From NCBI GenBank assembly GCA_963829055.1, contig CAWHHI010000013.1, positions 26,478 to 90,477 of the forward strand: a stretch of DNA of 64,000 nucleotides, given 5' to 3'. Both the position numbers and the translations under genes were made by a program. The notes under the pieces were generated by a model, which was given only the letters and a program-made list of their open reading frames with translations, did not search any database and had not been told where the DNA came from. Positions 1-64,000 of the stretch are shown one piece after another. Numbering within the stretch: the first letter of the stretch is position 1; each line of letters starts with the position of its first letter. The DNA is from an uncultured Gemmatimonadaceae bacterium. Lineage in GTDB: Bacteria > Gemmatimonadota > Gemmatimonadetes > Gemmatimonadales > Gemmatimonadaceae.

Positions 1-105
1 ACGGAGCTGCCGCTCCTGCTTCGGTCGCCGGTCATTGCCGACGTCCCGGTGCTCGATACAACGGAGTTGCACGTGGCGGCGATCGTCGACCGCCTGCGGC
101 GTTAG
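1..105 (+). CDS. 3' end of an aspartate/glutamate racemase family protein (truncated by window edge)
   Basis: Frame 1 reads TELPLLLRSPVIADVPVLDTTELHVAAIVDRLRR*, matching the racemase C-terminal (C)TELPL...DTT..H pattern. Confidence 0.7.
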   Translation, partial: TELPLLLRSPVIADVPVLDTTELHVAAIVDRLRR

Positions 106-137
106 GCATCACGTCCTTCGGACGCGGAGATAGAGAC

Positions 138-524
138 ATGTGGCGAAACATGCTGAGAGTAGCGGCGACGCTCGCGGTACTTCACGGCGTACTGACGTTC
201 GTCGTCGCGTTCACCGTCTTTCCAGGCAAGCGCGTCGACGTCATGGCGTTCGCCCAGCACGGGTTCACGTTCGTGTTCATCGCGTGCCTGAACGTCGCCA
301 CGTGGCAGTCACCGCGTCGTTCGCGCACCCTCGGCTATGTCGCCCACGCGTGCAACGTGGCGTTCCTCGGGTTCAACCTCGCGTTCAGTGTGGTCAACCC
401 GGAGCCACCCACGATCGTGGCGGCGGTCGTCCTGCTTCTTCTGACGGTGGCCGCCGTTGGGGTAGACACCTCGCTCCGCCGGAACGAGATGAGGCTGGCC
501 TCGATGGGCGTCGCGGCGGCATGA
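138..524 (+). CDS. Hypothetical membrane protein, about 4 TM segments
   Basis: 128 aa ORF with hydrophobic segments; GGAGA upstream. Confidence 0.65.
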   Translation: MWRNMLRVAATLAVLHGVLTFVVAFTVFPGKRVDVMAFAQHGFTFVFIACLNVATWQSPRRSRTLGYVAHACNVAFLGFNLAFSVVNPEPPTIVAAVVLLLLTVAAVGVDTSLRRNEMRLASMGVAAA

Positions 525-543
525 GACGGCACCGAGCCAACAT

Positions 544-984
544 GTGTGCGAAGCGGTGACGTCGAGGGCTCGCGAGACGGGCGCGCGAGGCGTGATCGCG
601 GCCGTCACCATCGGAATTGGCCTCATCGTTCACTGGCACGGAGCCCCGCTCGGGCAAACCGCGCGCGACGTAGCGGGAGACGCGCTGTGGGCGGCGATGA
701 TGTTCTGGCTCGTCTCGATCGTCGCGCCGGGCGTGCGCTGGCGGTGCGCGGCAGTCATCGCGCTCGGCATCTGCTTCGCGGTCGAGGTGAGCCAGCGCTA
801 CCACACGCCGTCGCTCGACGCGCTCCGTGGCACGACCATAGGACACCTCGTGCTCGGGAGCGGATTCGACCCCCGTGACTTCGCGGCATACACGGCGGGA
901 GTGCTCGCTGCGATGCTGCTGGACCGCGGTCTCGAGCGCCGCGGCGAGCAGCGGTCGCGCGCCGTGGCGCAGGACAGAGCCTAA
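544..984 (+). CDS. DUF2809-like membrane protein (start uncertain)
   Basis: GDALWA, EVSQ, LVLGSGFDPRDFAAYTAG motifs. Confidence 0.75.
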   Translation: MCEAVTSRARETGARGVIAAVTIGIGLIVHWHGAPLGQTARDVAGDALWAAMMFWLVSIVAPGVRWRCAAVIALGICFAVEVSQRYHTPSLDALRGTTIGHLVLGSGFDPRDFAAYTAGVLAAMLLDRGLERRGEQRSRAVAQDRA

Positions 985-1138
985 CGGTCGCCGACCAGCC
1001 GGCGCATCGCCTGACGCCATCGTCGACGACGCGATTTCCGGGTGGGGCTCCGCGGCGGAAGAAATGCCCGTCGAAACGGCTGCAGCGCTCGGGCTTTTCT
1101 TCCACCTCACTTGACGCACACGGACGCTCCCGTCCCGG

Positions 1139-1705
1139 TCACGCTGTCGGCGCGTAGGCGAGGACGACGTTGCCGTTCGCAAACGAGCGGACACTCGTGC
1201 GTCTGAGCGTCAGCGGCCCGTTCACGCCGTCGAACATCGTCCGCCCGCCTCCAACCGCGATCGGATTCACGACGACGAAGAACTCGTCGATCAGCCCTGC
1301 CTGCGCGAGCTGAGCCACGATGCTGCCGCTGCCGAGGATCGTCATGTCGCTCCCTGGCGCGTTCTTGAGGGCTCGTACTTCGGAAGCGAGATCGCCCTTG
1401 AGCAGCGTGGTATTCTGCCACGACGCCTCCTTCAGCGTGCGCGAGAACACGATCTTCTGCAGCTCGTTCATGTGCCGGGCGAGGTCCGGGGTATTCTGCA
1501 GCGCGGCGGGTGTCGGCCAGTAGCTCGCCATCATCTGATACGTGACCCGGCCGAACACCAACGTGCCGCCAGAGCTGGCGTTCCCGGCGACGAACTCGTT
1601 CCACTCGGTGTCATCGTTAGGCCGGTGCGCCCAGCTCATGTCGCCCTTGGCGTCCGTGAAGCGGCCGTCGAGTGATATCTGGTTGAATACGGTCAGTTTT
1701 CGCAT
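1139..1705 (-). CDS. Dihydrofolate reductase / RibD C-terminal domain protein
   Basis: MRKLTVFNQISLDG, GRVTYQ, GSGSIV, LIDEF motifs; true start is ATG at 1705, inside ORF 1139..1969. Confidence 0.9.
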   Translation of the reverse strand: MRKLTVFNQISLDGRFTDAKGDMSWAHRPNDDTEWNEFVAGNASSGGTLVFGRVTYQMMASYWPTPAALQNTPDLARHMNELQKIVFSRTLKEASWQNTTLLKGDLASEVRALKNAPGSDMTILGSGSIVAQLAQAGLIDEFFVVVNPIAVGGGRTMFDGVNGPLTLRRTSVRSFANGNVVLAYAPTA

Positions 1706-1814
1706 GGTCGGTTGTCCGTTTGGTTGGTTTTGGCAGCTGCTTGCTGCTGGACAGCAAATCCAAGAATTGTCACCGCGATCGGTACGTCGCAGGTGATCGC
1801 GGATCGGGCGCAAT

Positions 1815-2081
1815 TCCAACAGCGACGCAGAATTCGCAGGCGCGTGTGCGCGCAACGCAGAAGGACGCAGAAAACGGCACCATTCGTTCGGGCAGAGTCC
1901 ATCTCGTCGACGACCGTGAAGACAGGGGAACGGCCTCGGGCGGGCCAACGCGTCCCGGGGTCGTTCCACGATCTCTCAAAGGCCTGGCGCGAACCGCCGT
2001 GTCCCAGCGGCCGTTTTCTGCGTCCTTCTGCGTTGCGGCCGCGGAGCGGGCCGCCTGCGTCGATTCTGCGTCGCTGTTGGA
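1815..2081. repeat. Repeat family R3 copy 1: about 270 bp MITE-like element with long terminal inverted repeats
   Basis: TCCAACAGCGACGCAGAAT...CGCAGAAGGACGCAGAAAAC / GTTTTCTGCGTCCTTCTGCG...ATTCTGCGTCGCTGTTGGA; second copy at about 36033-36369. Confidence 0.85.
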
Positions 2082-3364
2082 CGCCTCGATGAGATCAGCA
2101 GTCGAGGGTCCATGAGCCTGGCCTCGCAACTCAGGAGGCGTTTCTCGAGGAACCGACGCTCCGTCGCGTTTCGTGCGAGGCCGAGGGCCGCCTGGAAGCT
2201 CGCGCGCGCCGCGTCTCTGTTGCCGCGACGCAATTGCATCTCCCCCACCGCCGCTGGATAGAACGGGTAGCTCGCCAGCCGATCGCGGTCGTCGATCGCA
2301 TACAGCGCGTCGAGCCCCTGCTCTGCCCCATCGCGCTCGGCGATCGCGATCGCGCGATTGAGCGCCACCACCGGTGACGGCGCGAGGTCCATGAGCCTGT
2401 CGTACAGCGACACGATCGCCGCCCAGTCCGTGTCTTCGACGCGTCGTGCACTCGCATGGACGGCTGCGATGGCCGCCTCGACGTGATACGGCGTCAGCGT
2501 TAGGCCCGTGGCCGACTGCTCCAGCAGCGAGAGACCATCGGCAATCAGTCGGGCGTCCCACGCCGAACGATCCTGGTCGAGGAGCGGACTCAGGTCCCCG
2601 CCCGAATCGAGACGCGCCGGTAGTCGCGCCGCGTGCAGGCGCATCAACGCCGCGAGTGCGTTCGTGGTCGGCGTCGCCGCTGGCGGATGCTCGCGCAGCA
2701 GGTCCGCCAGCCGCATTGCTTCCGCGCACAGCTCCGCGCGAACCACGGACTTCGACGATGCGCCGTGATAGCCCTCGTTGAATAGCAGGTACAGCGCTTG
2801 TCGCACCGCCGAAAGGCGCGATTCGAATTCGCTGTCCGCGAGGTCGAACAACCGCGTGGAGCCCGCGAGCACCTGCTTCCCGCGCGATACACGCTTCTCG
2901 ATCGCCGCTCGGCCCGTCAGGAATGCGCTCGCGATCTCGTTCGCGCTGAAGCCGCACAGGATGTTGAGGATGAGTGCGACCTGCGTATCCTCCGACAGTC
3001 GCGGATGACAGCACGAGAACATCATCCGCAGCTGTTCGTCGCGAATCGTGTGCGCGGCGAACGCCTCGTCCACGAGTGGAACGATCGTCCATTCGCTCTC
3101 GAGCAGTCGCCCGAGCTCCGGCGCGAACGTGCGAGCCGTGCGCTCGCGCCTCACGACGTCGAGCGCACGATTCTTCGCCGTCGCCATCAGCCACGCTGTC
3201 GGATTCTCCGGGACACCGCGCTCGTTCCACACCTCGAGCGCGCGGGAGAACGCGTCCTGCACGACGTCTTCCGCGAGTGGCAGGTTGTGCACGCCGAAGA
3301 TGCGCGTGACCGCGGCAACCAGGCGGCCCGACTCGCGACGGAACAGCTGATCGTGCAGGTCCAT
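1976..3364 (-). CDS. ECF sigma factor with long C-terminal TPR-like extension (ECF42-like)
   Basis: AEDVVQDAF, CCHPRL, LFNEGY, DQDRSAWD, SPVVALNRAIA; follows a YciI gene; the last ~40 codons run into repeat R3, so the true stop may be earlier. Confidence 0.9.
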   Translation of the reverse strand: MDLHDQLFRRESGRLVAAVTRIFGVHNLPLAEDVVQDAFSRALEVWNERGVPENPTAWLMATAKNRALDVVRRERTARTFAPELGRLLESEWTIVPLVDEAFAAHTIRDEQLRMMFSCCHPRLSEDTQVALILNILCGFSANEIASAFLTGRAAIEKRVSRGKQVLAGSTRLFDLADSEFESRLSAVRQALYLLFNEGYHGASSKSVVRAELCAEAMRLADLLREHPPAATPTTNALAALMRLHAARLPARLDSGGDLSPLLDQDRSAWDARLIADGLSLLEQSATGLTLTPYHVEAAIAAVHASARRVEDTDWAAIVSLYDRLMDLAPSPVVALNRAIAIAERDGAEQGLDALYAIDDRDRLASYPFYPAAVGEMQLRRGNRDAARASFQAALGLARNATERRFLEKRLLSCEARLMDPRLLISSRRPTATQNRRRRPAPRPQRRRTQKTAAGTRRFAPGL

Positions 3365-3368
3365 CCGA

Positions 3369-3725
3369 CTACGCGGGCCTCTGGCCAACGGGCCGCACTT
3401 CGACGGAGCCTTCGCCATAGAGCATCGGGCAACCGCCCGCGAGCTCGACCGCCTCGGCCATGTCCTTCGCCTCGACCACGATGAAGCCAGCGACCATGTC
3501 CTTCACTTCCACATACGGCCCGTCTGTGACCGTCCTGCGCGGTCCACGAATGACTGTGCCCTTTGCGTCGAGCGGCTGGCCGGGATTCTTCAGGTGGCCA
3601 TTCGCTTCCAGTCCGCGAATCCAGTCCAGCCATACCTTCATGCTCTGCGCGGCCTGCTCGGGCGTCCCCATGACCTCGCGCTGCTCCGCACCGCTGACCC
3701 GAAACAGGTAGACGAACTCACTCAT
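3369..3725 (-). CDS. YciI/YCII-related (DGPF-type) protein
   Basis: VTDGPYVEVKDMVAGF, GSVEVRPV; GAGGAG RBS. Confidence 0.9.
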   Translation of the reverse strand: MSEFVYLFRVSGAEQREVMGTPEQAAQSMKVWLDWIRGLEANGHLKNPGQPLDAKGTVIRGPRRTVTDGPYVEVKDMVAGFIVVEAKDMAEAVELAGGCPMLYGEGSVEVRPVGQRPA

Positions 3726-4432: not shown

Positions 4433-5754
4433 CGACGCGCGACACGAGCGGACTCCGACGACGCTCACCATCGGGCACCTGCTGCGCGACCTCGCGCCGC
4501 AGGTGCTCGGCGCCGTCGCCCGTCGCCACGGTGACTTCGCTGCGGCGGAAGATGCCGTGCAGGAAGCGCTGATCGCGGCGGCGGCGCAGTGGCCGCACGA
4601 CGGCATTCCCGACAATCCACGCGGCTGGCTCTATCAGGTCGCCATTCGGCGTCTGACGGATCACGTGCGCAGCGAGATCGCGCGCCGCCGTCGCGAGGAC
4701 GTCGTGGCGACCGAATCGTCGGCGATCGAGACCGTCGTGCCACGGTCTTCGGCGAGATCGGCGCCGAGGAGGACGACACGCTCATGCTGCTCTTCATGTG
4801 CTGTCATCCGGCGCTGACGCCGCCGTCGGCGATCGCGCTCACGCTGCGCGCCGTCGGCGGCCTGACGACGGCGGAGATCGCGAACGCGTTCCTCGTCCCC
4901 GAAGCGACGATGGCGCAGCGCATCAGCCGCGCGAAGCAGAGCATCAAGACGTCGAAGGTCGCGTTCCGGCTGCCTAACGACGCCGAGCGCGCCGAGCGAC
5001 TGAGCGCGGTGCTGCACGTGCTGTATCTGATCTTCAGCGAGGGGTACACGAGCAGCGTCGGACCGGATCTGCAGCGCACCGATCTCGTCGAACGAGGCGA
5101 TCCGGCTGACGCGCACTGCTGCACGCGATTGCTGCCGAACGACGGCGAGGTCACCGGACTGCTCGCGCTCATGCTGCTCACCGACGCGCGGCGCGCGGCG
5201 CGCACGGGCCCGAACGGCGAGCTGATTCCGCTCGACGAGCAGGATCGCTCGCTCTGGGATCAGCGAGCTGATCGCCGAGGGAGTCGCGCTCGTCTCGCGC
5301 GCGTTGTCGCGGGGCGCGATCGGCCCGTATCAGCTGCAGGCGGCGATCGCGGCGCGTGCACGACGAGGCCGCGCGCGCCGAGGACACGGACTGGCCGCAG
5401 ATCCTCGCGCTGTACGGGCTGCTCGAGCGCATGTCGGACAATCCGATGGTGACGCTCAACCGCGCGATCGCGGCGGCGATGGTGCACGGTCCGGCGGTGG
5501 GGCTCGAGCTACTTGCAGCCAGCTCGATGCCGACGCGCGCATCGCGGGACACTATCGTCTCGACGCGGTGCGCGGCCATCTCTACGAGATGGCCGGCGAT
5601 CCCGAGCGCGCGATCGGCACACTACCGCGCCGCGGCGGAGCGCACGACGAGCATCCCGGAGCGGAACTACCTCACCACCAAGGCCGCTCGGCTCGCGGCC
5701 GAGCAGCGCAAGGTGGGTGCGAAAGCCGATACGGCCGTAAAGCCTAACGTGTAA
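4429..5754 (+). CDS. ECF42-like sigma factor (several frameshifts; start approximate)
   Basis: AEDAVQEAL, CCHPAL, LIFSEGY, DEQDRSLWD, GPYQLQAAIAA, DWPQI, NPMVTLNRA across ORFs 4131, 4589, 5304 and 5356. Confidence 0.85.
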
Positions 5755-5875: not shown

Positions 5876-6355
5876 TCAGCGCGTCTTCGCGAGCAACCGA
5901 TCGAGCGCCTCGTAGCTCTGATTGAGGCCGCCCTCCATTCCGGAGTTGAGCATTCCGTCGCGCTCTTCCGTGGTGTGGAATAGCGAGGTGGTGACCACTC
6001 TCGTCCGTCCGTTGCCAATGTCCTCGAGCTCCGTGGATTCGACGATCACGTACCCCGGCATGCCGTCCCACTCGAACGTGCGGACGATGCGTTCCTGCGG
6101 CGTGACTTCGCGATAGCGGCCCTCGAAGCCGTGTGTGCCATCGGGCGCGTGCTCGACGTACCGCCAGTGGCCGCCGCGCTCGACCTCCATCCGCTCGATG
6201 ACGAGCGTGTTGCCGCGCCCCCACCACTCGGCAACGAGCTTGGGGTCGGTGAACGCACGCCAGACTCGGTCGACGGAGGCATCGAACACGCGCTCGACGC
6301 GGATCTGGCGATCGGACGGCTTGGTGATCTTGGACCGTGCGGATGTGGTGGTCAT
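5876..6355 (-). CDS. SRPBCC/AHSA1 domain protein
   Basis: RVFDAS..RVWRAFTDP..VAEWWG, GMEGG..QSYEALD; AAGGAG RBS. Confidence 0.9.
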   Translation of the reverse strand: MTTTSARSKITKPSDRQIRVERVFDASVDRVWRAFTDPKLVAEWWGRGNTLVIERMEVERGGHWRYVEHAPDGTHGFEGRYREVTPQERIVRTFEWDGMPGYVIVESTELEDIGNGRTRVVTTSLFHTTEERDGMLNSGMEGGLNQSYEALDRLLAKTR

Positions 6356-6690
6356 CTGTCATCTCCTTTGGTGCGCTCGAGAAATTCCCCGAGGCTGTCG
6401 AGGCGGGCGTCGAGCATCTTCTGGTACTTTCCGATCCAGGCGGCTTCGTCCGCCAATCGGCGTGGTCCCAGCCGGCACATGCGCACGCGCCCGATCTTCT
6501 CCGTCCTAACGAGGCCGGCATCCTCGAGGAGCCGTACATGCTTCTTCATTCCGGTGAGCGTCATCTCGAACGTTTGCGCGAGCTCGGTGATCGAGGCCTC
6601 TCGACGCCCGAGTCGTTCGAGGATCCCGCGTCGGGTCGAGTCGGCGACGGCGGCGAACGTGGCGTCCAGGTTTCGCTGATACTGAACCAT
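6352..6690 (-). CDS. ArsR/SmtB family transcriptional regulator
   Basis: LDATFAAVADSTRRGIL, KHVRLLEDAGLV..EKIGRVR; overlaps the SRPBCC start by 4 bp. Confidence 0.9.
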   Translation of the reverse strand: MVQYQRNLDATFAAVADSTRRGILERLGRREASITELAQTFEMTLTGMKKHVRLLEDAGLVRTEKIGRVRMCRLGPRRLADEAAWIGKYQKMLDARLDSLGEFLERTKGDDR

Positions 6691-6702
6691 GTGGTTCAGT
6701 AT
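6679..6702. promoter_or_regulatory. Probable ArsR autoregulatory operator
   Basis: ATACTGAACCA-TG-TGGTTCAGTAT inverted repeat covering the ArsR start codon. Confidence 0.7.
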
Positions 6703-6817
6703 ATGTGAGCGCTCGGTTGGGCGCAATGGGTTCGTTCGACGGGCGAGGGACTGCTTCGACAACACTCTCAGACGAAAGATGAAAACGGATTCGTCTGATC
6801 TGACGGATTGACTCCTT

Positions 6818-7060
6818 TGTCATCCCGGGGAGCGCCAGCAGGTTGTCATCCCGAGGAGCGCCAGCGACGAGGGAGTCTTCTGTGATGTCATCGTAGTCAG
6901 ACTGGCCACCATGACGTTCGAGAAGATCCCTCGCTGTCGCTCGGGATGACAAACGCTGGCGCTCGGGATGATACCGTCGTTTCCTCCGCCCTCCGCCCTC
7001 CGCCCTCCGCCTTCCGCCATCCGCCTCCGCCATCCGCCTTCCGCCTTCCTCAAGCCTCCG
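6818..7060. repeat. R1 REP-like palindrome with duplicated ends, then a 7-mer (CTCCGCC-like) tract
   Basis: GTCATCCCGAGGAGCGCCAGCGACGAGGGA ... TCCCTCGCTGTCGCTCGGGATGAC; about 9 CHCCGCC-like units. Confidence 0.85.
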
Positions 7061-7068
7061 TGGCTCCT

Positions 7069-8118
7069 CTACCGGAAAGGCCCCTCGACCTGCCCGCGAA
7101 TCTCGCCCGCCGGAAACGCCGACGTATGCAGGTCGATGTACACCTTGCCCGGCGCGAGCAGCTTGACGAGTGAGTCGAGCGAGATCGCCGGCCGACCACC
7201 CTGCGGGCGAATGTCCGCCGCGCCAAACGATCCGTTCAGCGCACCGAAGCTCGTGGCCTGTGCACCGATGGGAAGATCCACCAACGTGCCAGCGACGTCC
7301 GTCGTGTCGCCCGGGCCGTGCAAATGCGCCTCGACCGCCGGGCCTGAAAGGGCCGACCACGTGATCGTGTAGTTGATCCTGTCACCGGTACGGAAGAAGA
7401 ACGCGACGCCTGCACCGGCCGTCGGAACCGGATTCGGCTTCACGAGATCGCTCAGCATGAGCGCGGCGTGGTCGAAGTTCGCCGGCGACCGGGTGCTGAT
7501 GGCGGCGGTGTCACTCGCTGTCACGCCATCCTTCGTCAGCGTCGCGGTGATGATCGCCGATGGCAATGCAGGGAACGCGAAGATCGCCGTAACGACGCCC
7601 GTGTTCGAGACGATCACGCTTCCCGGATTGCTCGACGTGAACGTGAAACCCGTTAGGCCATTCAACGGATTGCCACGGGCATCGAGGCCCGTCGTCACGA
7701 GCTGCGCGGTGGAGCCGAGCGTGACAACGGGGACAGGGCTCGTGACGACGACGGACGCGAGCGCGCGACGCACCAGGACGGTGGCCGTCCCCTGGACGGA
7801 CCCGGCGCTCGCGGTGATCGTCGCGACGCCGTCCTCGACGGCGGTGATCGTCGCGGTGCTGCCCGTTCCCACGACGGTTGCGACGGCGGGGTCATCGGAC
7901 GTCCACGTCAGCGACGGCGAGGGCACGACCGACTGGTTGGCATCCTTCACCACCGCGGTCACTGTTCGCGTATCGCCGGCGGACGTCATGACGGCATCGG
8001 GCGACAGCGTGAGTCCGACAGAAGCGACGACCGTGTTCGGGTACGCCGGACCATCGTTGTCATAGCCACACCCAGCCAGACCTACACTCGCGCACAGTAC
8101 GACATATGAAAACCGCAT
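7069..8118 (-). CDS. Lipoprotein with two Ig-like (Big_2-type) domains and a C-terminal CHRD domain
   Basis: LAGC lipobox; WTSDDPAVATV and FTSSNPGSV repeats; AHLHGP and YIDLHT..FPAGEIRGQV. Confidence 0.85.
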   Translation of the reverse strand: MRFSYVVLCASVGLAGCGYDNDGPAYPNTVVASVGLTLSPDAVMTSAGDTRTVTAVVKDANQSVVPSPSLTWTSDDPAVATVVGTGSTATITAVEDGVATITASAGSVQGTATVLVRRALASVVVTSPVPVVTLGSTAQLVTTGLDARGNPLNGLTGFTFTSSNPGSVIVSNTGVVTAIFAFPALPSAIITATLTKDGVTASDTAAISTRSPANFDHAALMLSDLVKPNPVPTAGAGVAFFFRTGDRINYTITWSALSGPAVEAHLHGPGDTTDVAGTLVDLPIGAQATSFGALNGSFGAADIRPQGGRPAISLDSLVKLLAPGKVYIDLHTSAFPAGEIRGQVEGPFR

Positions 8119-8530
8119 CGATCCTCCTGAAGGTCCGCATTCGGAGCTCGACGCGACGTGCTATCGACCCATCTTCAGTCGACCGCACGCCGGCGAGCCA
8201 TTGCCTTCAGAAACGTCCCGGCGCGAACTATCCGGACATGCGGTGTCGCCGTTAGGTGCCGCTACGTATTACCGGTCTGACGGTGCGAACGTCAGCTTCG
8301 GCATAGAACGTGTCGTTCCACGCCATGCCCGGCGTCCGCGACTCTCGGGCTGGAAGTCAGGGTATGCTGACTGTCGACAGCGCCGGGTGGGCTGTACCCT
8401 TTACGCGGACCGTAGGCCGCCCAATCGGCCAGACGGGACGATAACGCCCGTGCGTCCCGCTCACCAACCGCCGCCGTCCGTCGGCGCGCGGACGCGGTCT
8501 CACGCTACAGGCGTTAGGTGCAATCCGAAT

Positions 8531-9009: not shown

Positions 9010-9256
9010 ACCCTCCGCTCGAGCCACCAACGTCAGCCACGCACCGGGCCGCCTCCATACGCCACGTGACGTATGAGGTTGCCGTACACTCGACGACAAG
9101 CCAACCGGCCCGCACGTTAGGCATCATCGAAGCCGAGCTCGCGGCCAAGGTACAGGCCGGTACCATGCTCGCCGACTGGCCAATCAACCACGCGACGTAT
9201 TGGCGTCGGGCGGCTGACCGTACGCTCTGACCCGCCAGCCGTTAGGTTAGGCGGCG

Positions 9257-51070: not shown

Positions 51071-51100
51071 TGCCCTGCCGGATGCCATGACCAAGCCAGC

Positions 51101-53838: not shown

Positions 53839-53843
53839 ACTCG

Positions 53844-54579: not shown

Positions 54580-54731
54580 TGTCATTCCGGGCAGCTTGTC
54601 ATTCCGAGCGGAGGCCGAAGGCCGCAGTCGAGGAATCGAGCCGCCTGTCAGGTAGAGGGCTCTCTACCGGGACGACGAGGATTCCTCGACTCGCTCCGCT
54701 CGCTCGGAATGACAACACCGCTCGGAATGAC
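54580..54731. repeat. R2 palindrome with duplicated ends
   Basis: GTCATTCCG x2 .. GTAGAGGGCTCTCTAC .. GCTCGGAATGAC x2. Confidence 0.9.
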
Positions 54732-54801
54732 ATCGCCGAGCCGAGCCGTTCGGTAGATTTCTCGCACGTCTGAACACACCCGCGAACACGCCCATCACGA
54801 A

Positions 54802-55527
54802 ATGAGCACCCTTGCGATCACCGCTCCAGTCAGCCGGAGCCTCTACGTCAGCGACCCCGCCCGGAGCATCGCATTCTACCGCGACGTGCTCGGCTTCGAC
54901 GTTCGTCCCGGCCCGAGCGGCGGGATCGAGATGACCCTCGGCCCGGCGCGCATCACGTTAGGCAGGCGTGATCCCGCCACCGACCCGGGCCGAAGCATCC
55001 TGTTCTTCGAGATCGACGACGTCGCGGCGACCTACGACACCCTCGGCGCTCGCGGCGCCAATCCGACCGTGCCGGAAGACGTCAACTGGATCAAGATGCG
55101 GATGATCGAGGTCCGCGATCCGGACGGCAACACGCTGTGGTTCGGAAATGGCTTCGGTGGACCGAACAAGCCCACCGCGCAGCGGCTGCTCCGCAAAGTC
55201 ATGCCTGAGCTTCCGCTCGACGACGTGGCCGCCGGAGTCGCGCATTACCGCGACGTGTTAGGCTTCGAGGTCAACTACCAGCAGGGCGACCTGGGCGTCA
55301 TGGATCGCGACGGCATGCGCCTCCTGCTGATCGAGCGAACCGCGCGGCACACCGGGATCGGATCGTGCAGCTTCTACGTGACCGACGCCGATGCACTCCA
55401 CGCGGAGCTCGTCGCGAAGGGCGCGAACGTGCAGGGCGAGCCGGTGAGTCAGCCCTGGGGTCTGCGCGAGTTCAAGGTGCTGGACCTCGAGGGCAACCGG
55501 CTGTCCTTCGCGCAGACGTTCGAGTGA
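54802..55527 (+). CDS. Tandem VOC/glyoxalase domain protein
   Basis: FYRDVLGF and HYRDVLGF; VRDPDGN; QPWGLREF..DLEGN. Confidence 0.88.
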   Translation: MSTLAITAPVSRSLYVSDPARSIAFYRDVLGFDVRPGPSGGIEMTLGPARITLGRRDPATDPGRSILFFEIDDVAATYDTLGARGANPTVPEDVNWIKMRMIEVRDPDGNTLWFGNGFGGPNKPTAQRLLRKVMPELPLDDVAAGVAHYRDVLGFEVNYQQGDLGVMDRDGMRLLLIERTARHTGIGSCSFYVTDADALHAELVAKGANVQGEPVSQPWGLREFKVLDLEGNRLSFAQTFE

Positions 55528-55546
55528 CCTTACCCTCTTCCGACAC

Positions 55547-56038
55547 ATGACCGTTCGCGTCTTCGTCACCGGCGGCACGTTCGACAAGGAATACGACGAG
55601 CTCACCGGCAAGCTCTACTTTCGAAACACCCACGTCGACGAGATGCTGCGGCGCGGACGATGCGGGTTGGACGTCGATGTCGAGACGCTCATGATGGTGG
55701 ACAGCCTCGAGATGACCGGCGAGCAGCGCGCGCGCATCGTCCAGGCATGCCGCGATTGCGAGGAGGACCAGATCGTCATCACCCACGGCACCGACACGAT
55801 GGTCGAAACCGCGCGCGCGATTGCCGATGGGATGGACGGCAAGACCGTCGTGCTCACGGGCGCCATGGTGCCGTACGCGTTCGGCAGCTCGGACGGACTC
55901 TTCAACCTCGGCAGCGCGCTCTCGTTCGTGCAGTCGCTCCCACCTGGCGTGTACATCGCGATGAACGGCCGCAGCTTCCCGTGGGATGACGTGCGCAAGA
56001 ACCGCGACGCTGGCGTGTTCGAGCGACTCCCGGCATAA
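55547..56038 (+). CDS. Short asparaginase-domain protein (N-terminal domain only)
   Basis: TGGTFDK, DSLEM, HGTDTM, VLTGAM. Confidence 0.9.
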   Translation: MTVRVFVTGGTFDKEYDELTGKLYFRNTHVDEMLRRGRCGLDVDVETLMMVDSLEMTGEQRARIVQACRDCEEDQIVITHGTDTMVETARAIADGMDGKTVVLTGAMVPYAFGSSDGLFNLGSALSFVQSLPPGVYIAMNGRSFPWDDVRKNRDAGVFERLPA

Positions 56039-56072
56039 CCCGGTTGCTCCGCGCAACAGTTGTCCGCCGCTC

Positions 56073-58479
56073 GTGACCACCGAAGTTCGACCACGCTCGA
56101 TCGAGGAAGACTGGCTCTGGGGGTGGGATCTCACGCCCGGCATCGTGTCCGTGTGGGCGGAGAACACCGGGCACGCGATCGTCTGGCGTCGCATTCCGGA
56201 GACCGGCGCGCTCGTGCGCGAAGTCGAGCGCTTTCGACCGTGGCTGCTCCTCGATCGTCTGGATGACCTGACGCATCTCGGCTCCGCGCTCGTGCGCGAG
56301 GATGCGGAAGACGGGCCCGCCGCGGCGGACGCACGCGTCACGTTTCGCGAGCTGCACGGACCGGGAGAGTTGCGGTATCTCGTTCGCGCCAACGACACGC
56401 GCACCCTAACGAGTGCCGTGCTCGACGGCGCGAGCCGTCGGCTGGGGAAGCGCGTCGGCCACATCCGCGATCTGGAAGACGACAGCGTGCTCGCCCTTCC
56501 AGCCGAGGAGCAGTATCTCGTCGCTACGGGTCGCACGTACTTCCGCGGGCTGACGTTCGATGATCTGCGGCGCCTGCAGTTCGACCTCGAGACCACGGGC
56601 CTCAATCCGGAGCACAGCCGGATGTTCATGGTCTCGGTGCGCTATCCGGACGGGTCGACCGAGGTGCTCGAGGCTCCCCAGCGCGGCGATGCCGGGGAAG
56701 CCGAGCTCATTCGGCAACTCATGGCGCGCATCGAGGCTGCCGATCCGGATGTGATCGAGAACCACAACCTGCACGGGTTCGATCTCCCCTTCCTCGATCA
56801 CCGCGCGCGGCGAGTCGGCGTCCCACTCACGTTAGGCCGCACCGGACCCCCGGGGTTGCGTCAGCGTGCGGCGCGCCGCGGTGTCGCCGGCAGCGACGGA
56901 AGCCGGCGACGCGTCCGATTCATCGTCCCGGGCCGCGAGCTGATCGATACGATGGATGCGGTGATCGCGTACGACTTCTCCACGCGATCGCTGCCGGGCC
57001 ACGGCCTCAAGGCCGTCGCGCGTCACCTCGGCTTCGCGTCGCCCGATCGCGAGTACATCAAGGGCAGTCAGATCTACGCGACGTATCGCACGGATCCGGA
57101 TCGCGTCAGGCGTTATGCAACGGACGACGTCATTGAAGTCGCGCATCTGTCGCGCATGCTCGGCGGCGCTGCCTTCGCGCTCGCGCAGATGGCGCCGCGC
57201 CGCTACGAGCGACTGTCCGACGCGGGCGCCGCCACGGGCGTCATCGACCCGATGCTCGTGCGCGCGTACCTGCGGTCCGACACGGCACTGCCGAAGCACG
57301 AGCCGAGCGACGGCACGCCGCACAGTGGCGCAGCGCTTCACCTGTTCGCGTCAGGCGTCGCGCAGCGCGTCGTCAAGGTGGACGTGGCCAGTCTGTACCC
57401 GTCGCTCATGCGGTCGTTTCGCATCGGCCCGGCGCGCGATGAGCTGGGTGCGTTGCTCGCGCTCGTCGACGGCCTGGTGCAGCGCCGCCTGCAGGCGAAG
57501 GCGGACGCGCGCGCGGCACCCGCTGGCTCGGCCGAGCGCCACACGCACGAGGCGCTCTCGGCGGCGATGAAGATCGTCGTCAACTCCGCGTACGGGTATC
57601 TCGCGGCGGGCGGCGACCTGACGCGCTTCGCCGACGTGCACGCGGCGAACGAGGTGACGCGACGCGGCCGCGAGACGCTCGAGCTGATCTGCCGAGCGTT
57701 GGCGGAGCGCGGCGTGACGTTGATCGAGGCCGACACGGATGGCGTGTACTTCGCTGTACCGGAGTCGTGGACCGAGGATGATGAGCGCCGCATCGTCGCC
57801 GAGGTAGCCGAGTTGCTGCCGTCGCTCGTGCATCTGGAGCTCGAGGGGCGTTATGCAGCAATGCTCTCGCACGAGCCGAAGAACTACGCCCTGCTCGGCT
57901 ACGACGGCACGCTCGTGCTTCGAGGCGTGGCGTTCCGGTCGAGTCGTGCGGAACCGTTCGGCGAGACGTTCCTGCGTCGGGCGATCGCGAAACTGCTCGT
58001 CGGCGACGTCGCGGGTGTACACGCGGTGTACGTCGCGACGGTGAGCGCGCTGCGCCAGCGCGAGCTGTCCACGCGCGAGGTGTCGTCGCGCGTGCGTCTC
58101 GACGAAGCCGCCGGCGCGCTATCTCGAAAGCCGCGAGCGTCGTCGAGAGCTGCCGTACGAGGCGATGCTCCTGAGCGGCCGAACGACGTGGAGCGTTGGT
58201 GATCGCGTGCGCGTGTATCGCACGCAGGGAGGCGGGGCCGGCATCGTGGATCTCGATGACCCCGACGCCGAGTCGCATGATCCGCGCGACTACGACGTCG
58301 AGCACTACGTTCGGCTGCTGCGCGAGACGTACTCGGCCCGCCTCGCTCGGGCGCTCACACCGGCGGACTTCACGGCGGTGTTCTCGGACCCGGATCAGTT
58401 CTCGCTGTTGCCGCCGTCGTTCGAGACGATGCGACCTATCCTGACGGTTTTGGGCGGCGCTCGTTACGGGGCTCGTTAG
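56073..58479 (+). CDS. Family B DNA polymerase with 3'-5' exonuclease domain (frameshift near 58100)
   Basis: Exo motifs FDLETTG, HNLHGFDLPFL, YATDD; pol motifs DVASLYPS, KIVVNSAYG, ADTDG, KNYA. Confidence 0.9.
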
Positions 58480-59117
58480 GTCGTCTCGTCCAGCAGGTCG
58501 CGTTCGGCGAGCTCCGCGATCCACTCCTCGTGTCGGCGTCGGCTCCACCCGAGCTCCTCGATCGTCAGGTGGTACAGCTCGGGACTCGTCAGGGCGCAGA
58601 ACCGCTCGGCGGCCTGGCGCGGTGTGAGTCCGGCCGGAAGCTCGAGACAGACGTGCTGCGCGAAGTGTCGCTTCTGATTCGCGAGACGCTCACTCAGGAG
58701 CCGAGCGCGCAGTTCGATCGCGAACGCCTCGCTGTCGGCGGCGCCGCGGATGACCTTGTGCACGGGGCTCGTCTGCGCGAGCACGCCGCAGCAGAACGTC
58801 ACGAACGCCCGGAGTCGGGCGCGGGCCGACGGGAGACGTCCAATCGCCTCGAGCGCGGCGTCCTGCTCCGGCTTCAGGGGGATGGCGGCGTCGATCACGC
58901 CTTCGAGCAGGCCGCGCTTACCGCCGAACGTGGCGTAGATCGTCTCCTGCGAAATGCCCGCCGCATTGGCGACCGCCGCGATCGTCGTGCTGGCATAGCC
59001 CCGGTCGATGAACAACGCTCTGGCCGCATCGAGGGCCCGTTGCCGCGTCGAGAGGGCCTGCTCCGAGCGCACTGCGGAGCGGTACTGTCGGCGTTGGGGA
59101 TTGACAGGCTGACTCAT
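58476..59117 (-). CDS. TetR family regulator
   Basis: AARALF..RGYASTTIAAVA..AGIS.ETIY..FGGK HTH. Confidence 0.92.
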   Translation of the reverse strand: MSQPVNPQRRQYRSAVRSEQALSTRQRALDAARALFIDRGYASTTIAAVANAAGISQETIYATFGGKRGLLEGVIDAAIPLKPEQDAALEAIGRLPSARARLRAFVTFCCGVLAQTSPVHKVIRGAADSEAFAIELRARLLSERLANQKRHFAQHVCLELPAGLTPRQAAERFCALTSPELYHLTIEELGWSRRRHEEWIAELAERDLLDETT

Positions 59118-59177
59118 TTGCGTACTGTAGCGCTGTATTGATTTGAGTGCAACTGTACCGAATCAAGAGAGGCGGCC

Positions 59178-60026
59178 ATGGCACGCACCGGCACGACGCA
59201 GGCACTTCGCGTGGACGGCGAGCAGATCGAGTATGAAGACGCGGGCGCTGGCGAGCCAATCCTGCTCGTGCATGCCGGGGCGTTCAGCGACTGGTTCGCG
59301 CCGGTGGCGGCCACCGCGGAGCTGAACGGATTCCGCGTCATCCGTCTCCGCCGCGCCGGGTACGTGAATGGCAGCGTCCCGTCTCGTCATCTGTCGATCG
59401 CCGACCATGCGCGACACTGTGGCTTGCTGCTCGATGCGCTCGGGCTCTCGAGGGCGCACGTGTGTGGTCATTCGAGTGGCGCACTCGTTGGGCTGCAACT
59501 CGCGCTCGACCGACCGGCGCTCGTGCACAGCCTCGTGCTCCTCGATCCCGCACCGGGCGGCGAGCTCCTGGGACCGATCAATGCTCCGACGGTCGGTGGG
59601 GTGCTCGGCCCTGTCATGGAAGCGTATGCCGGTGGTGACACGGCAGTCGCGTTCGATCGCTTCATGACTGCCGTGTGCGGCTCGCATCATCGGTCCGTCA
59701 TGGAACAGGCGCTTGGCATCGATGGATATGAGCAGGCCGTGCGCGAGTCCGCGTTCTTCCCGGATGAAGTGGCCGCCGTTGGTGAATGGCAGTTCGGCGT
59801 CACCGAGGCGAGCAGGATCCGCGCGCCGATGCTTCTCGTGGACGGCGGGACGACCGCGGACGTCGCCGCCGTGCTACCCGAGTCAGTCTCGCGACTCGCG
59901 GCGATGGTGCCGCAGGCCGAGGTCGCCGTGCTGGCGGGCGCTAGTCACCTCATGCCGCTCGAGGACCCCGGCGGCGTCGCCCGGCTCATCGCGGATTTCG
60001 TCCGCACGCACGCGATCACTGCCTAA
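59178..60026 (+). CDS. Alpha/beta hydrolase
   Basis: GHSSG nucleophile elbow, SHLMPLEDP; divergent from TetR. Confidence 0.9.
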   Translation: MARTGTTQALRVDGEQIEYEDAGAGEPILLVHAGAFSDWFAPVAATAELNGFRVIRLRRAGYVNGSVPSRHLSIADHARHCGLLLDALGLSRAHVCGHSSGALVGLQLALDRPALVHSLVLLDPAPGGELLGPINAPTVGGVLGPVMEAYAGGDTAVAFDRFMTAVCGSHHRSVMEQALGIDGYEQAVRESAFFPDEVAAVGEWQFGVTEASRIRAPMLLVDGGTTADVAAVLPESVSRLAAMVPQAEVAVLAGASHLMPLEDPGGVARLIADFVRTHAITA

Positions 60027-60119
60027 CGTCGATCATCGACCATGACTCACTCGCATTGTCAGGTGGCCATGACGCAATGGTGACACAACCGGCTGCGCTC
60101 GCGGACCTGCTCCTCGACC

Positions 60120-62505
60120 TTACGTAGGGTCCGGCTGCACGAACATGCCCACGCGCTCGCACGAGCTCGCGCCACCGTGGGTCATCGACAATGGCGCGAT
60201 CATGGCCCGGGGCCACGACGCGGAAAATCGCTTCGACCGGCAGCACGACACAGAGGAAGTCTCGAGTCTCGTAGGCGCGTTCGAGCCACCGGAATGCTGC
60301 GTCGTAGTTGCCGAGCGCCTGCTCCACGACCGCGATGGCGCTCGGAGGGAGCCAGCCGTGCTCGCTTCGCTCGAATGAGCTCGTCGCGGATGCGTCGCGC
60401 CTCGTCGTGGTTCCCCGTTAGGCATTCTGCGACTGCGACCTCGGCCGCAAGAAATGGAAGCGTGCTGCCGAGCGCAGCCGCGTGCTTCAAGTCTGCCAGT
60501 CCGCCCTCGACGTCGCCGACCGCGCAGCGCGACTTGCCTCGCCAGCGAAACGCGTCCGGATATCGTGGCTCCTGAGCAATCACGCGTTCCGCCGCGGCGA
60601 TTGCCTGGTGATAGTCGCCGACCAGTGAACGCAACGACCACAGCGTACCACTGTGTACCGAGAGAGACGGGGTCAGCCTCGATCGCCGCATTGCAATCCG
60701 CGACCGCCTGCTGACGCCTTCCACGTAACGCGTTCAGGCGAGCCGACAATTGAAGCGCCTCGGCGCTCCTCGGCTCTAGTGCGAGCGCGTGTTGGATGTG
60801 GCGCTCCGTGGCGTCAGGATCCCACTCGTGATAGAACGCGATCTCGCCGAGCATGCAGTGGGCCTCGGCCAGGCTTGGATCGAGTGCCAGGGCGTCCTGC
60901 GCGTAGCGACGCGTGCGCGTGAACGCTTCGGCCGGAGGAACCACCATGGAAATCGCGAGCCAGAGGTTCGCGTCCGCGAGCCCTACGAGTGCCGGCGCGA
61001 AATCCGGGTCCAGTGCCAGCGCCTGCTGAAAATGGATGATCGCCTCGCGATGCCCCTCGCCGCGACGGTGGTTCAGGTATCGTCCCTTGAGGTACGCGTC
61101 GTACGCCTCCACGTTCGCGGCCGGCCGCGTGCGTCGTGCGGTCCGAGCGTTCGCGACCGCCACGTGACGTTAGGCGCCGAGCGAACCTTCGTGCAAGGTG
61201 CTCCGCAGCATGTCCGCGATGGCGCTCGCGATTTCATCCTGCACGGCGAAGATGTCCGTCAGCTCCCGATCGAAGCGCTCACTCCAGAGCTGGAAGCCGT
61301 CGGATGCGTTGACGAGTTGTGCCGCGATGCGCACGCGGTTGCCGGCCCGGCGTACACTCCCTTCCAGCAGCGTGCGGACACTGAGCTGTTCGGCGATGAC
61401 GCGCGGGTCCGTCGGCTTGCCCTTGAACGCGAAGCTCGACGAGCGTGCCGCCACACGGAGCGAGCGGTCCTGGGCGAGGAGATTCCGGATCTCTTCGGCG
61501 ATGCCGTCGGAGAAGTATTCGTTTTCGGGGTCGGCGCTCAGATTCGCGAACGGCAACACCGCGATCGACGGGCTCTCGTCCATCGATACGCGCGGTCTCT
61601 CGTCGCCCGACAGTGCTCCGGCGGGCGAAGTCGGTTCGGACACCGAGAGCGACGACTCCAGAGCGTCCACGAGTGCACGTGCCGAAGTCGGGCGGGCCTC
61701 GCGGTCCTTCTCCAGGCATTGCATCACGATTGTCGCGACAGACGGTAGACAGCGATGGGCTTCGTTCGCCGACGGGTGCCGGTCGCTCGATCATGTGGGC
61801 GGTGATGTACGCGTGACTCGTGCGCTTGCCCGCAAATGGATGCGCGCCCGCCAGGCATTCATAGGCAACCACGCCCCATGCGTACAGGTCCGCGCGGAGA
61901 TCGGCGTCCGGATCGCCGGCCGCCTGCTCCGGCGCCATGTAGGCCGGCGTGCCTAACGCCATACCCAGCTGCGTCAGGGCATCGCCCGGCTGGCGCAACC
62001 GTGCCATGTCGAGCGCCTTGCTGATACCGAAATCAGTCACGACCGCGATGCCATCGGCGAGCAGCACGTTCTCCGGCTTGATGTCGCGATGGACCACACC
62101 CTCCGCATGCGCGTACGCAAGCGCATGTGCGACGTCGCCGAGAAGCCGAATGGCAGTTCGCGGCGCCAACGTTCCGGCGTTGAGCCGAGCGCGGAGCGAC
62201 TCACCGCGGACGAACGGCATGGTGTAGTAGGGCAGCCCGTCGCTGTCGCCGGCGGCGAGGAGGGGAACGATGTTGGGGTGCTGCAGACGCGCGGCGATGC
62301 GCAGTTCGCGCTCGAACCGTTCCATCGAGACGCCCTCAGCCAGCTCAGGCGAGAGCACCTTCACGACGACTTCTCGGCCCAGCCGAACGTCCCGCGCGAG
62401 AAAGACTCGGGACATGCCACCGCCGCCCAGCTCCCGGTCCAGCGAATAGCCGGTGCCGAGCGCCGACTGGAGTCGTCCGCGGAGGTCAGGAATGTCGATG
62501 CTCAC
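60120..62505 (-). CDS. Ser/Thr protein kinase with TolB-like and TPR domains (frameshifted; ends approximate)
   Basis: ELGGGGMSRVF, HRDIKPEN, DFG, GTPAYMAPEQ; SIAVLPFANLS..NEYFSDG; AYDAYLKGR. Confidence 0.88.
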
Positions 62506-62601
62506 GTCTGTCTCATATACCAAGAGCCGGGTTGGCTAAGCTATGGTGCCACCGGGACAACGCTAGCGGACACCGACGTCCGAGGTAGATACTCTTACCC
62601 C

Positions 62602-64000
62602 ATGAGCTCCGAGCTTCGGGACCAGCTGCAAACGACACTGGGCAACGCGTACACACTCGAGCGCGAGCTCGGGGGCGGCGGCATGTCCCGCGTGTTCGTG
62701 GCCGTCGACACGGCGCTCAGGCGATCGGTCGTCGTGAAGGTGCTGCCGCCGGAGATGTCCTCTGGCGTCTCGATCGATCGGTTCAAGCGGGAGATCTCGC
62801 TCGCGGCGCGGCTGCAGCATCCGCACATCGTGCCGCTGCTCTCGGCCGGCGAGGCGGGCGGGCTGCCGTACTTCACGATGCCGTTGATCGAAGGCGAGTC
62901 GCTCCGCGCGCGCCTGACGCGCTCCGGCGAGCTCCCGATCACCGAGGCCGTGCATCTCCTCCGTGAGGTCGCGTCGGCGCTGGCCTACGCGCACCGGAAA
63001 GGCGTCGTCCATCGCGACATCAAGCCCGAGAACATTCTCGTGACCGAGCAGCACGCGGTCGTCACGGACTTCGGCGTCGCCAAGGCGATTCACGACGCCG
63101 CGAGCGCCGTGGATCGTCATGGGAATCCGTCCGGGCCGACGGACACTGTCCGCCGGCCTTGACCGAGATCGGATTGGCGTTAGGCACGCCGCGCCTACAT
63201 GGCTCCCGAGCAGGTCGCCGGCGATCCGGCGACCGATCATCGCGCGGATATCTACGCCTTCGGCGTCGTCGCCTACGAGTTGCTGACCGGACGCACACCG
63301 TTCGCCGGACGATCCGCCGCAGGCGATCGATGGCCGCACACATCGTCGAAGCGCCGGAACCGATGGCGAGCCGTCGGCCAGCGAATCCCCGCGGCACTCG
63401 CCGCGCTCGTCATGCGGTGCCTCGAGAAGCGGCCGGCGGATCGGCCACAGCACGCCGACGACGTACTCCGCGAGCTCGACGATGTGTCCGCTGCCGCGCG
63501 TGAGACGAGCGACTCCGGCCGGCCGTCGGTCGCCGTGCTCCCGATGGTGAACACCAGCGGCGATCCGGACAACGAGCATTTCAGCGACGGCCTGACCGAC
63601 GAGTTGATCGGCGCGCTGAGCAAGGTGGCGGAGCTGACCGTGTCGGGCCGCACGTCGGTGTTCGCGCTCAAGGGCAAGGGTCTGAGCGTGCGCGCCATCG
63701 CGGACACGCTGCACGTCGCGAACGTACTCGAAGGCAGCGTGCGGCGCGCGGGGGATCGGCTCAAGGTTCGCGTGCAGCTCGTCGACGCCGACGGGACCGT
63801 GGTATGGTCGGAGGCGTACGACCGGACGCTCACGGACGTCTTCGCCGTTCAGGAGGAGATCGCGCAGGCGGTGGTGCGCGCACTGGAGATCAGGCTCGGC
63901 GCCTCACGCGGTCCGCTGGTTCGTCCGTCGACCGTAAACCTGGCGGCGTACGAGCTGTTTCTAAGGGGACGATTGCTTCGCCGTCGATTCAACCCTGCCG
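62602..64000 (+). CDS. Ser/Thr protein kinase with TolB-like domain (frameshifted; truncated by window end)
   Basis: ELGGGGMSRVF, HRDIKPEN, DFGVAK; SVAVLP..N.SGD.DNEHFSDG; AYELFLRGR. Confidence 0.88.

Follow-up and report, generated by a model that had tools for sequence, protein, structure and literature searches.

To our knowledge, just two bacterial families are established as having hyperabundant identity words whose reader is known. The DNA uptake sequence (DUS) of the Neisseriaceae is read by the minor pilin ComP. Another hyperabundant word, the cyanobacterial highly iterated palindrome 1 (HIP1), is a palindrome, as its name says, and cognate methyltransferases have been tied to it. DUS and the uptake signal sequences (USS) of the Pasteurellaceae occur at about 0.8 copy per kb on both strands, under frame constraints and at a cost in amino acids, and about half of their copies lie in terminators, often as inverted pairs (10.1101/2025.10.24.684340). 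Integrons are known for a different kind of short signal, the attC core, given as the consensus GTTRRRY/RYYYAAC, with crossover in the conserved triplet (PMC5027507). Here we analyze a word that touches on all of these systems, the heptamer CGTTAGG, which recurs throughout a 64,000-nucleotide stretch of DNA from an uncultured Gemmatimonadaceae bacterium (the window; contig C13, positions 26478-90477, of assembly G000). The explanation that we favor, tentatively and by analogy with DUS and USS, is that the octamer CGTTAGGC, to which the heptamer usually extends, could be a tag read during DNA acquisition, with a specificity that would coincide with that of the integron R box.

Abundance of the word and its cost to proteins

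A preliminary description of the window, made from its letters alone, had reported 68 copies of the heptamer, 35 on the plus strand and 33 on the minus strand, and an exact search returned the same number, the same strands, and every coordinate that it listed. Shuffles of the window that preserved dinucleotides held a mean of 2.56 copies and a maximum of 8, and none of the 100 shuffles reached 68. Other estimates made at that stage proved accurate as well. The roughly 7 copies predicted from composition (about 68% guanine plus cytosine [GC]) correspond to a zero-order expectation of 7.3 at a GC content of 0.669, the largest gap of about 2.5 kb measures 2,496 bases and follows the copy at 10507, the usual extension to CGTTAGGC is found at 50 of the 68 copies, and the word accounts for most of the TTAG/CTAA tetramers in the window, or 68 of 85 (80%). 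The preliminary description knew of no earlier account of the motif, and in a literature search outside subscription journals we likewise found no paper that describes it.

The assembly as a whole comprises 20 contigs and 7,784,024 bases, with a completeness of 85.9% and a contamination of 3.95%. Its 7.78 Mb hold 6,391 copies of the word, or about 1 per 1.2 kb (about 0.8 per kb), every contig has some, and the two strands are about equally represented on each of the 20. Composition predicts 891 copies, and Markov models predict 353 at order 1, 249 at order 2, and 720 at order 3, the last of which already absorbs part of the signal of the word. In the count of all 7-mers against Markov nulls that had been proposed as a check, the word ranks first under both order 1 and order 2, with z values of >320; a maximal-order model masks it only because its sub-words are co-enriched. 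The exact octamer is enriched about 25-fold, and 71.5% of all TTAG tetramers in the assembly fall within the word.

A logo of all copies in the assembly gives the eighth base as C (0.78) or T (0.13) and the base just upstream of the word as a weak preference for G (0.41) over T (0.28) and C (0.13), and positions farther out carry 0.07 bits or less. Since the flanks carry no information, the unit is a bare octamer that belongs to no longer repeat, and an origin of the word in some larger repeat or mobile element, which was also considered, is ruled out on the same ground. The doubt that the bases at these positions might be an artifact of assembly is answered by independent assemblies of six congeners and by the finished PacBio genome of a cultured relative, all of which contain the word.

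Coding regions were called crudely by their contrast in GC content at third codon positions, which gave 5,446 regions covering 67% of the assembly. Loss of the enrichment under a null that preserves proteins had been named as the result that would refute a signal at the DNA level. Synonymous shuffling within genes left 299 +/- 14 copies (20 shuffles, range 273-325), against 3,629 observed in the called coding regions, and the enrichment therefore survives. An artifact of composition or codon usage is ruled out by the dinucleotide, Markov, and synonymous-shuffle nulls taken together.

All four open reading frames through the word are used, with 1,368 copies read as xCG-TTA-GG, 1,058 as CCT-AAC-G, 679 as xxC-CTA-ACG, and 524 as xxC-GTT-AGG, and the 1,368 TTA codons that the first of these supplies are more than half of the 2,558 in the coding regions of the assembly. 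The two closed frames act as real stops: the word holds 200 of the 1,556 TAG and 241 of the 698 TAA stop codons and thereby ends 441 of 5,445 called open reading frames (ORFs). The codon readings first proposed for individual copies in the window stand at 19207, 21214, 22185, and 56405; at 15647, the ORF call reads xCG-TTA-GG and not GTT-AGG as had been suggested. The pressure on codons reaches the proteins. Tripeptides of the form P-N-[ADEGV] number 1,775, roughly double the 900 expected by composition, compared with 1,028 for the reversed tripeptide, and 60% of them are encoded by the word; [APST]-L-G tripeptides number 4,966, compared with 4,057 expected by composition and 3,961 for the reversed form. 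Pressure to keep the word thus extends to protein sequence, overriding preferences for codons and amino acids.

Along the assembly, copies are indifferent to strand and to the direction of transcription, and a test of spacing, also suggested earlier, found them more evenly placed than a Poisson process would have them. Gaps of <200 bases number 408 where 978 are expected, gaps of 400-1,500 bases exceed expectation, and those of 3-10 kb fall short of it. No dense cluster that could mark the gene of a regulator acting on its own DNA was seen in the assembly, where the maximum is 7 copies in 1.5 kb. Chi and the FtsK-orienting polar sequences (KOPS) are likewise short, asymmetric, and over-represented, and the word could in principle be a polar signal of this type, steering recombination or translocases along the replichore. 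We give this reading next to no credence and regard it as effectively refuted, as copies are not co-oriented with replication. The lack of Chi- or KOPS-like polarity claimed from the 35 plus-strand and 33 minus-strand copies of the window holds genome-wide, where orientation correlates with GC skew at r = 0.13 (145 bins of 50 kb; p = 0.12), polarity averages 0.09 where skew is positive and -0.01 where it is negative, and adjacent copies share the same sense 3,293 times and have opposite senses 3,078 times.

Word deserts are few. The largest spans 49.6 kb (contig C6, positions 5440-55038; GC content, 0.699) and holds zero copies where about 41 are expected. Genes for an OLD-family nuclease and a D5_N primase stand at its left edge, and its interior carries tryptophan-pathway, peptide deformylase, CDP-alcohol transferase, and BamD-like genes. 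This desert could reflect a recent import or, alternatively, a chimeric join made during assembly.

The integron core, site conservation, and phyletic spread

The word is the R box (G|TTAGGC, the core site, preceded by a 5' C) of integrons that are common in the window's order, including the integron of the assembly itself. When the preliminary description found no cognate gene in the window, it was right to the extent that the integron integrase is encoded on another contig, and it overlooked the identity with the integron core. In relatives that are poor in the word, the copies that do occur are clustered on one strand, every 500-650 bases, and three such arrays account for 40 of the 65 copies in G021. 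These array copies form the 3' ends of repeats of 85-95 bases that fold as canonical attC sites: the R'' box complements the word, the L boxes pair and contain bulged bases, the loop varies, a spacer stays unpaired, and the R' box is the word itself. Small ORFs lie between the repeats, remnants of intI adjoin the arrays, and the presumed attI next to intI reads [A/T]GTTAGGC in six relatives. In work on class 1 integrons, the complement of an attI1 oligonucleotide holds the same 7-mer, GTTAGGC (PMC2811028). Chance is an unlikely source of an identity between the word and the integron core in an order so rich in integrons, the word being one 8-mer among about 32,000. Large one-stranded arrays are also seen in several other word-poor genomes, for example, G146 (6 copies versus 62) and G326 (42 versus 3).

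The integron of the assembly lies on contig C20. Its integrase gene (C20:208041-208958; 265.7 bits) encodes Phage_integrase and SAM-like domains, three attC-like hairpins at C20 positions 205102, 205717, and 207189 are all on the same strand and end in the word, and the cassette-like ORFs include DUF4440, DUF1801, and DUF1990 members and a BrnT fragment. The only one-stranded array of the word in the assembly is found here, at 200-208 kb of the contig, and orientation is mixed elsewhere. Within the region C20:199001-213000, intI reads in the same direction as the cassettes, as it does in G021 and on plasmid 1 of Gemmatirosa kalamazoonensis, and a truncated second intI is present at C4:2862-3170.

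A protein of the window led to a cultured carrier, as its best match in a plasmid database, at 52% identity, is encoded on plasmid 1 of G. kalamazoonensis KBS708. This plasmid holds 39 copies of the word in 50 kb, all as the 8-mer, against 1.3 expected, and plasmid 2 holds 32 in 50 kb. The IntI of plasmid 1 is 47% identical to that of the assembly and is followed by a same-strand array of at least 17.7 kb, in which several attC sites have the full 8-mer in both arms, 88-90 bases apart. Because this cultured and fully sequenced strain has both the word and an integron, the reader is open to experiment.

Conservation was assessed by aligning positions 40,001-60,000 of the window to five congeneric species, with which it shares 73-84% of its nucleotides. 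Orthologous sites are kept exactly at 36 of the 54 covered copies, compared with 21-24% of all 7-mers. The intergenic copies at 42609 and 42664 have counterparts at matching places in G001 and G005 despite diverged flanks. At the gene end near 58474, the word stands in one sense in the assembly and in G002 and in the opposite sense in G003, a switch that, from the aligned sequences, suggests repeated gain. Among sites that are not conserved, the commonest alternative is CGTCAGG, a single transition away (3 of 18 cases).

The phyletic sample comprised 401 genomes, 265 from the window's order and 136 from the rest of the phylum, and a genome was called rich when its count of the word was at least twice that of a reversed-word control. 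Four genomes flagged as unpublished (G013, G079, G118, and G199) enter only these tallies; none of them is rich, and no claim depends on them. Sixteen of the 401 genomes are rich, all within the window's order; 13 belong to family f1 and the other 3 to genus g73, in family f2, and the addition of G014, G010, and G030 brings the total to 13 rich genera in three families of that one order. Outside the order, not one of the 136 genomes has more copies than its control, and most other sampled genomes are depleted in the word, as in G011, with 6 copies against 107. Within the window's genus, all seven genomes hold 2,501-5,112 copies of the 8-mer each.

Rich genomes also carry more near-matches. Relative to the reversed control, variants with one mismatch stand at 0.94 in the window's assembly and 1.27 in G236, both rich, and at 0.46 in G289, 0.36 in G016, and 0.29 in G007, all poor; they are 2 to 4 times commoner in rich than in poor genomes, as expected from a balance between mutation and drive. 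A ghost of decayed copies in G289 was considered and set aside, as its ratio is barely above that of the other poor genomes. The words CTGCTTTCT/AGAAAGCAG are mildly over-represented in G289, with 14-16 copies in 67 kb, and may belong to a repeat element.

Copies and neighboring features along the window

The 68 copies in the window were located by exact search for CGTTAGG on both strands. In what follows, ORFs are crude calls, and the eighth base, that after the heptamer, is C unless another is given. The first copies, 100-106(+) and 980-986(-), lie outside ORF calls. They are followed by 1615-1621(+), read CCT-AAC-G in ORF 1142-1975(-); 2498-2504(+), read xxC-CTA-ACG in the sigma-70-like ORF 1979-3502(-); 4973-4979(-), read xxC-GTT-AGG in ORF 4664-5329(-); 5743-5749(-), read CCT-AAC-G at the end of ORF 5332-5751(+); 6505-6511(-), with A, read xxC-GTT-AGG in ORF 6355-6819(-); and 7651-7657(+), read xxC-CTA-ACG in ORF 7072-8160(-). 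Seven copies that come next are again outside the calls: 8250-8256(+), 8512-8518(+), and 9240-9246(+), each with T, 9115-9121(+), 10507-10513(-), after which the largest gap begins, 13003-13009(-), with T, and 13807-13813(+). The copy at 15647-15653(+), with A, is read xCG-TTA-GG in ORF 15169-15708(+), and that at 16608-16614(+) is outside the calls.

Two large genes then hold three copies each. The TonB-dependent receptor ORF 17766-19823(+) reads 18076-18082(+) and 19207-19213(+) as xCG-TTA-GG and 18723-18729(-) as CCT-AAC-G, and the MacB/FtsX permease ORF 20157-22637(+) reads 21214-21220(+) as xCG-TTA-GG and both 22185-22191(-), with T, and 22515-22521(-) as CCT-AAC-G. Beyond 23352-23358(-), outside the calls, ORF 23430-25439(-) carries 24420-24426(-) as xxC-GTT-AGG and 24604-24610(-) as xCG-TTA-GG. 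Two copies outside the calls, 26539-26545(+), with T, and 26583-26589(-), are 44 bases apart and opposite in sense, and the adjoining ORF 26596-27756(+) reads 26762-26768(+) and 27308-27314(+), the latter with T, as xCG-TTA-GG. The reading CCT-AAC-G recurs at 28995-29001(-) in ORF 28740-29474(+), at 29848-29854(+) and 30427-30433(+) in ORF 29747-30598(-), and at 31478-31484(+) in ORF 30600-32240(-), which also reads 32074-32080(-), with G, as xCG-TTA-GG.

Several copies in the middle of the window sit at or near gene boundaries. That at 32933-32939(-) is at the end of ORF 32647-32934(+), outside the call; 36394-36400(+) and 38042-38048(-) are at the 3' and 5' edges, respectively, of ORF 36399-38042(-); and 39164-39170(+) is at the end of ORF 38777-39166(+). 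Interspersed with these are 33491-33497(-), with T, and 34953-34959(+), read xCG-TTA-GG in ORF 33028-34593(-) and in the GH18 ORF 34688-35947(+), respectively, and two copies with G outside the calls, 36106-36112(-) and 40398-40404(-).

For copies in the aligned interval, the fate in covered relatives can be added. In ORF 40834-42609(-), 40880-40886(-) and 41981-41987(-) are read xCG-TTA-GG and are kept in G001 and G005. Upstream of this ORF is the intergenic copy 42609-42615(-), accompanied by a second intergenic copy, 42664-42670(-), with T; the two are 55 bases apart and upstream of a heme-peroxidase-like gene. The M14 peptidase ORF 43951-46467(-) has four copies: 44066-44072(-), read xCG-TTA-GG and kept in one of three covered relatives; 44710-44716(+), read xxC-CTA-ACG and kept in three of three; 45232-45238(-), read xxC-GTT-AGG and kept in none of four (CGTCAGG in two); and 46033-46039(+), read xxC-CTA-ACG and kept in two of four. 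Both copies in the M28 peptidase ORF 48058-49734(-), 48135-48141(+) and 48753-48759(+), are read CCT-AAC-G and kept in five of five. The copy 49752-49758(-) lies between that ORF and ORF 49757-50857(+), and 50868-50874(+), with T, lies just 3' of the latter and is kept in G002. In ORF 51132-51899(-), 51361-51367(-), with G, is read xCG-TTA-GG and 51723-51729(-) is read xxC-GTT-AGG, each kept in three of three; in the MacB/FtsX ORF 51901-53631(-), 52152-52158(+), read CCT-AAC-G, is kept in none of three, and 53171-53177(-), read xCG-TTA-GG, in three of three. The copy 54956-54962(+), read xCG-TTA-GG in ORF 54757-55524(+), is kept in two of three. The family-B polymerase-like ORF 55965-58199(+) reads 56405-56411(-), with G, as xxC-CTA-ACG, kept in four of five, and 56830-56836(+) as xCG-TTA-GG, kept in none of five. 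Toward the right end of the window, 58474-58480(+), with T, is at the end of the small ORF 58201-58476(+), 60022-60028(-) is at the end of ORF 59142-60023(+), 60416-60422(+) is outside the calls, 61168-61174(+) is read xCG-TTA-GG in ORF 60780-61745(+), and the kinase ORF 61957-63159(+) has 61952-61958(-) just upstream and 63178-63184(+) just 3' of it.

The polymerase-like gene at 55965-58199 also encodes an RNase-H-like exonuclease domain and is conserved in all five congeners compared, with a gene order downstream of it that varies between species. A separate repeat is present nearby. A palindromic element of about 170 bases, resembling a miniature inverted-repeat transposable element, with ends built on GTCATTCCGAGC, occurs in two inverted copies at 53660-53850 and 54570-54745, which flank ORF 53847-54581. 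BLAST gives 398 matches to the element in the assembly and many in congeners, and the element explains the other over-represented 9- and 10-mers, TCGGAATGA, AGTCGAGGAA, and TCCGAGCGGA.

Candidate readers and known systems

The preliminary description proposed a genome-wide cis signal, and the data agree with a signal at the DNA level that is imposed against codon habits and is unpolarized. Of the three functions that it offered, an uptake sequence is the best analogue, a site for a nucleoid protein is conceivable, and the target of an asymmetric methyltransferase is disfavored by the near absence of family matches and by a relative's methylome without the word. Our inference is that the word is read in the course of DNA acquisition and that its copies are kept by drive and not by what each site does. 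A free-standing, double-stranded CGTTAGGC would then be maintained by selection or molecular drive on the DNA through a sequence-specific reader, acting most likely at DNA uptake or at recombination after uptake. Fragments bearing the word would be favored, as with the DUS of the Neisseriaceae and the USS of the Pasteurellaceae, and substitutions would carry the word into genes, their stop codons, and the spacers between them until about one copy per kb was reached. Because the word is identical to the integron R box of the order, such a reader would also favor the cassette arrays of relatives, and the identity would explain why independent lineages arrived at one and the same word. The assembly encodes ComEC, type IV pilins, and a secretin, with only a partial match to ComEA.

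Several observations weigh against an uptake tag. DUS and USS are family-wide and come in dialects, whereas the word has no dialects, is the same in every rich lineage, and is patchy within the family and even within a genus. Three genomes of genus g40 (G236, G293, and G397) hold 3,479-4,141 copies and a fourth, G289, holds 66, a contrast that at the same time offers a comparative route to the gene responsible. No alternative word of comparable z-score was found in 40-100 kb of each of the poor genomes G289, G016, G008, and G007. Inverted pairs in terminators are common for DUS and USS, whereas close inverted pairs (<60 bases) number only 42 among the approximately 7,100 GTTAGG hexamers of the assembly. 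A correlation with competence genes had been suggested, and the ComEC, pilin, secretin, and ComEA families turned out to occur regardless of richness; a limited comparison of 10 regions with pilin loci, drawn from five genomes, found shared major pilins only and no pilin specific to rich genomes. Neither competence nor uptake bias is known in the Gemmatimonadota, and in searches outside subscription journals we found no paper that links a Gemmatimonad with an uptake sequence. Uptake alone, moreover, would leave the match to the integron core as a coincidence or call for an extra assumption.

That identity is the starting point of the main rival, which we consider unlikely: copies might be docking sites, bare R boxes that act as distributed attI- or attG-like sites for a tyrosine recombinase of the integron-integrase type, either IntI or a relative of the same specificity, in which case the whole chromosome could capture cassettes or exchange segments of about 1 kb. 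The arrays, attC ends, and attI sites of relatives carry the word, the assembly and G. kalamazoonensis plasmid 1 both have IntI together with attC sites containing it, and integrases can use double-stranded genomic sites, termed attG, although the consensus of these is only GWT with weak flanks (10.1101/2022.09.11.507474). The integron core, as an outside standard that does not change, would on this reading account for the use of one word by all rich lineages. IntI is concentrated in the only order with rich genomes, with matches in 170 of the 265 sampled genomes of the order and 16 of the 136 in the rest of the phylum, and 14 of the 16 rich genomes have one. Yet 156 of the 249 non-rich genomes of the order have a match too, the poor G289 has three, and the rich G002, G004, G010, G125, and G397 gave none, although incomplete assemblies could hide one, and the intI of G014 lies in three frames; a role for IntI as a necessary or sufficient reader is therefore unsupported. 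Free copies in the assembly show no excess of attC-like pairs; only 7 hairpins pass a strict filter, and L'-R' signatures number only 13 among the 6,391 copies, so that solo cassettes at free copies were rejected too. The synteny block ends examined, at 40,831-40,838, 42,466-42,479, and 58,446-58,448, miss copies by 26-185 bases and none falls on a copy, so that breakpoints at the word were rejected as well; these analyses gave no sign that free copies recombine. Thousands of strong recombinase sites within genes should, finally, be hazardous. A bolder and rather improbable extension would treat the copies as genome-wide R boxes through which a recombinase of this type, or an uptake receptor tuned to attC ends, handles the chromosome as cassette-sized modules of about 1 kb; ordinary genes would move, by exchange or capture, along the integron route, and the resulting drive would spread the word. 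If true, this would bear on where integron cassettes come from.

Two further readings dispense with DNA acquisition. The word could be the binding site of an abundant chromosome-organizing or nucleoid-associated protein, with copies weakly selected for compaction, loading, or segregation. Even spacing, with its deficit of very short and very long gaps, independence from strand and transcription, and the conservation of intergenic copies in diverged flanks all fit such a protein, but no candidate was found, and the sites of known nucleoid proteins are looser or rich in AT. Such a protein would also leave unexplained why several lineages gained an identical 8-mer in patches and why that 8-mer equals the integron core; we judge this reading improbable. 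Still less probable, in our view, is that the word is a functionless end product of biased repair or gene conversion, possibly coupled to modification as proposed for HIP1, in which near-matches are converted. In its favor, CGTCAGG, the commonest alternative at non-conserved sites, differs by a single transition, and a patchy distribution would suit a mobile enzyme gene. Against it, one-mismatch variants are enriched and not depleted in rich genomes, and the most used frames need two or three substitutions from common codons, along with amino acid changes, unlike a single-step conversion. No fitting methyltransferase was found in the assembly: PF01555 (N6_N4), PF00145 (C5), and PF02384 (N6_Mtase) had no match there, and PF07669 (Eco57I-type) had one partial match. 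The correlation with methyltransferases proposed earlier also failed, as these four families follow no pattern of richness in G000, G236, G289, G014, and G016. Sequencing by the single-molecule real-time (SMRT) method, for its part, is weak for 5-methylcytosine. The SMRT base-modification analysis of KBS708 names three N6-methyladenine motifs, RGATCY, ATGCAC, and CCAGN7TCA, and nothing at the word (PMC3974934).

With an uptake tag as the provisional choice, and a small share of probability assigned to no reading, the word can be set beside the systems that it most resembles. Like HIP1, it is a hyperabundant octamer imposed on coding sequence genome-wide, but it is nonpalindromic, and no methyltransferase or methylation fits it. 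With integron attC and attI sites it shares the core GTTAGGC, and its 5' C matches the one in local attC R' boxes, whereas >99% of the copies in the assembly are bare 8-mers in ordinary genes, without a hairpin partner, L boxes, an adjacent intI, or a one-stranded array. As the crossover site of a mobile gene-capture system, the word joins the fields of uptake signals and integrons, which are usually treated apart. The attG sites are also double-stranded, GTT-containing genomic positions where cassettes can insert, but their enrichment is not reported, and their loose consensus differs from one exact 8-mer that is enriched many times over (10.1101/2022.09.11.507474). DUS and USS remain the closest parallel. 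They too are short asymmetric words present about once per kb on both strands that are read in several gene frames at the expense of codons and amino acids, persist at orthologous sites, and come with many one-off variants; the word differs in being 8 bases long without an extended flank and in its use for genuine stops. With a force sufficient to alter codon use, stops, and the proteins themselves, it adds to these a hyperabundant case in a different and poorly studied soil phylum.

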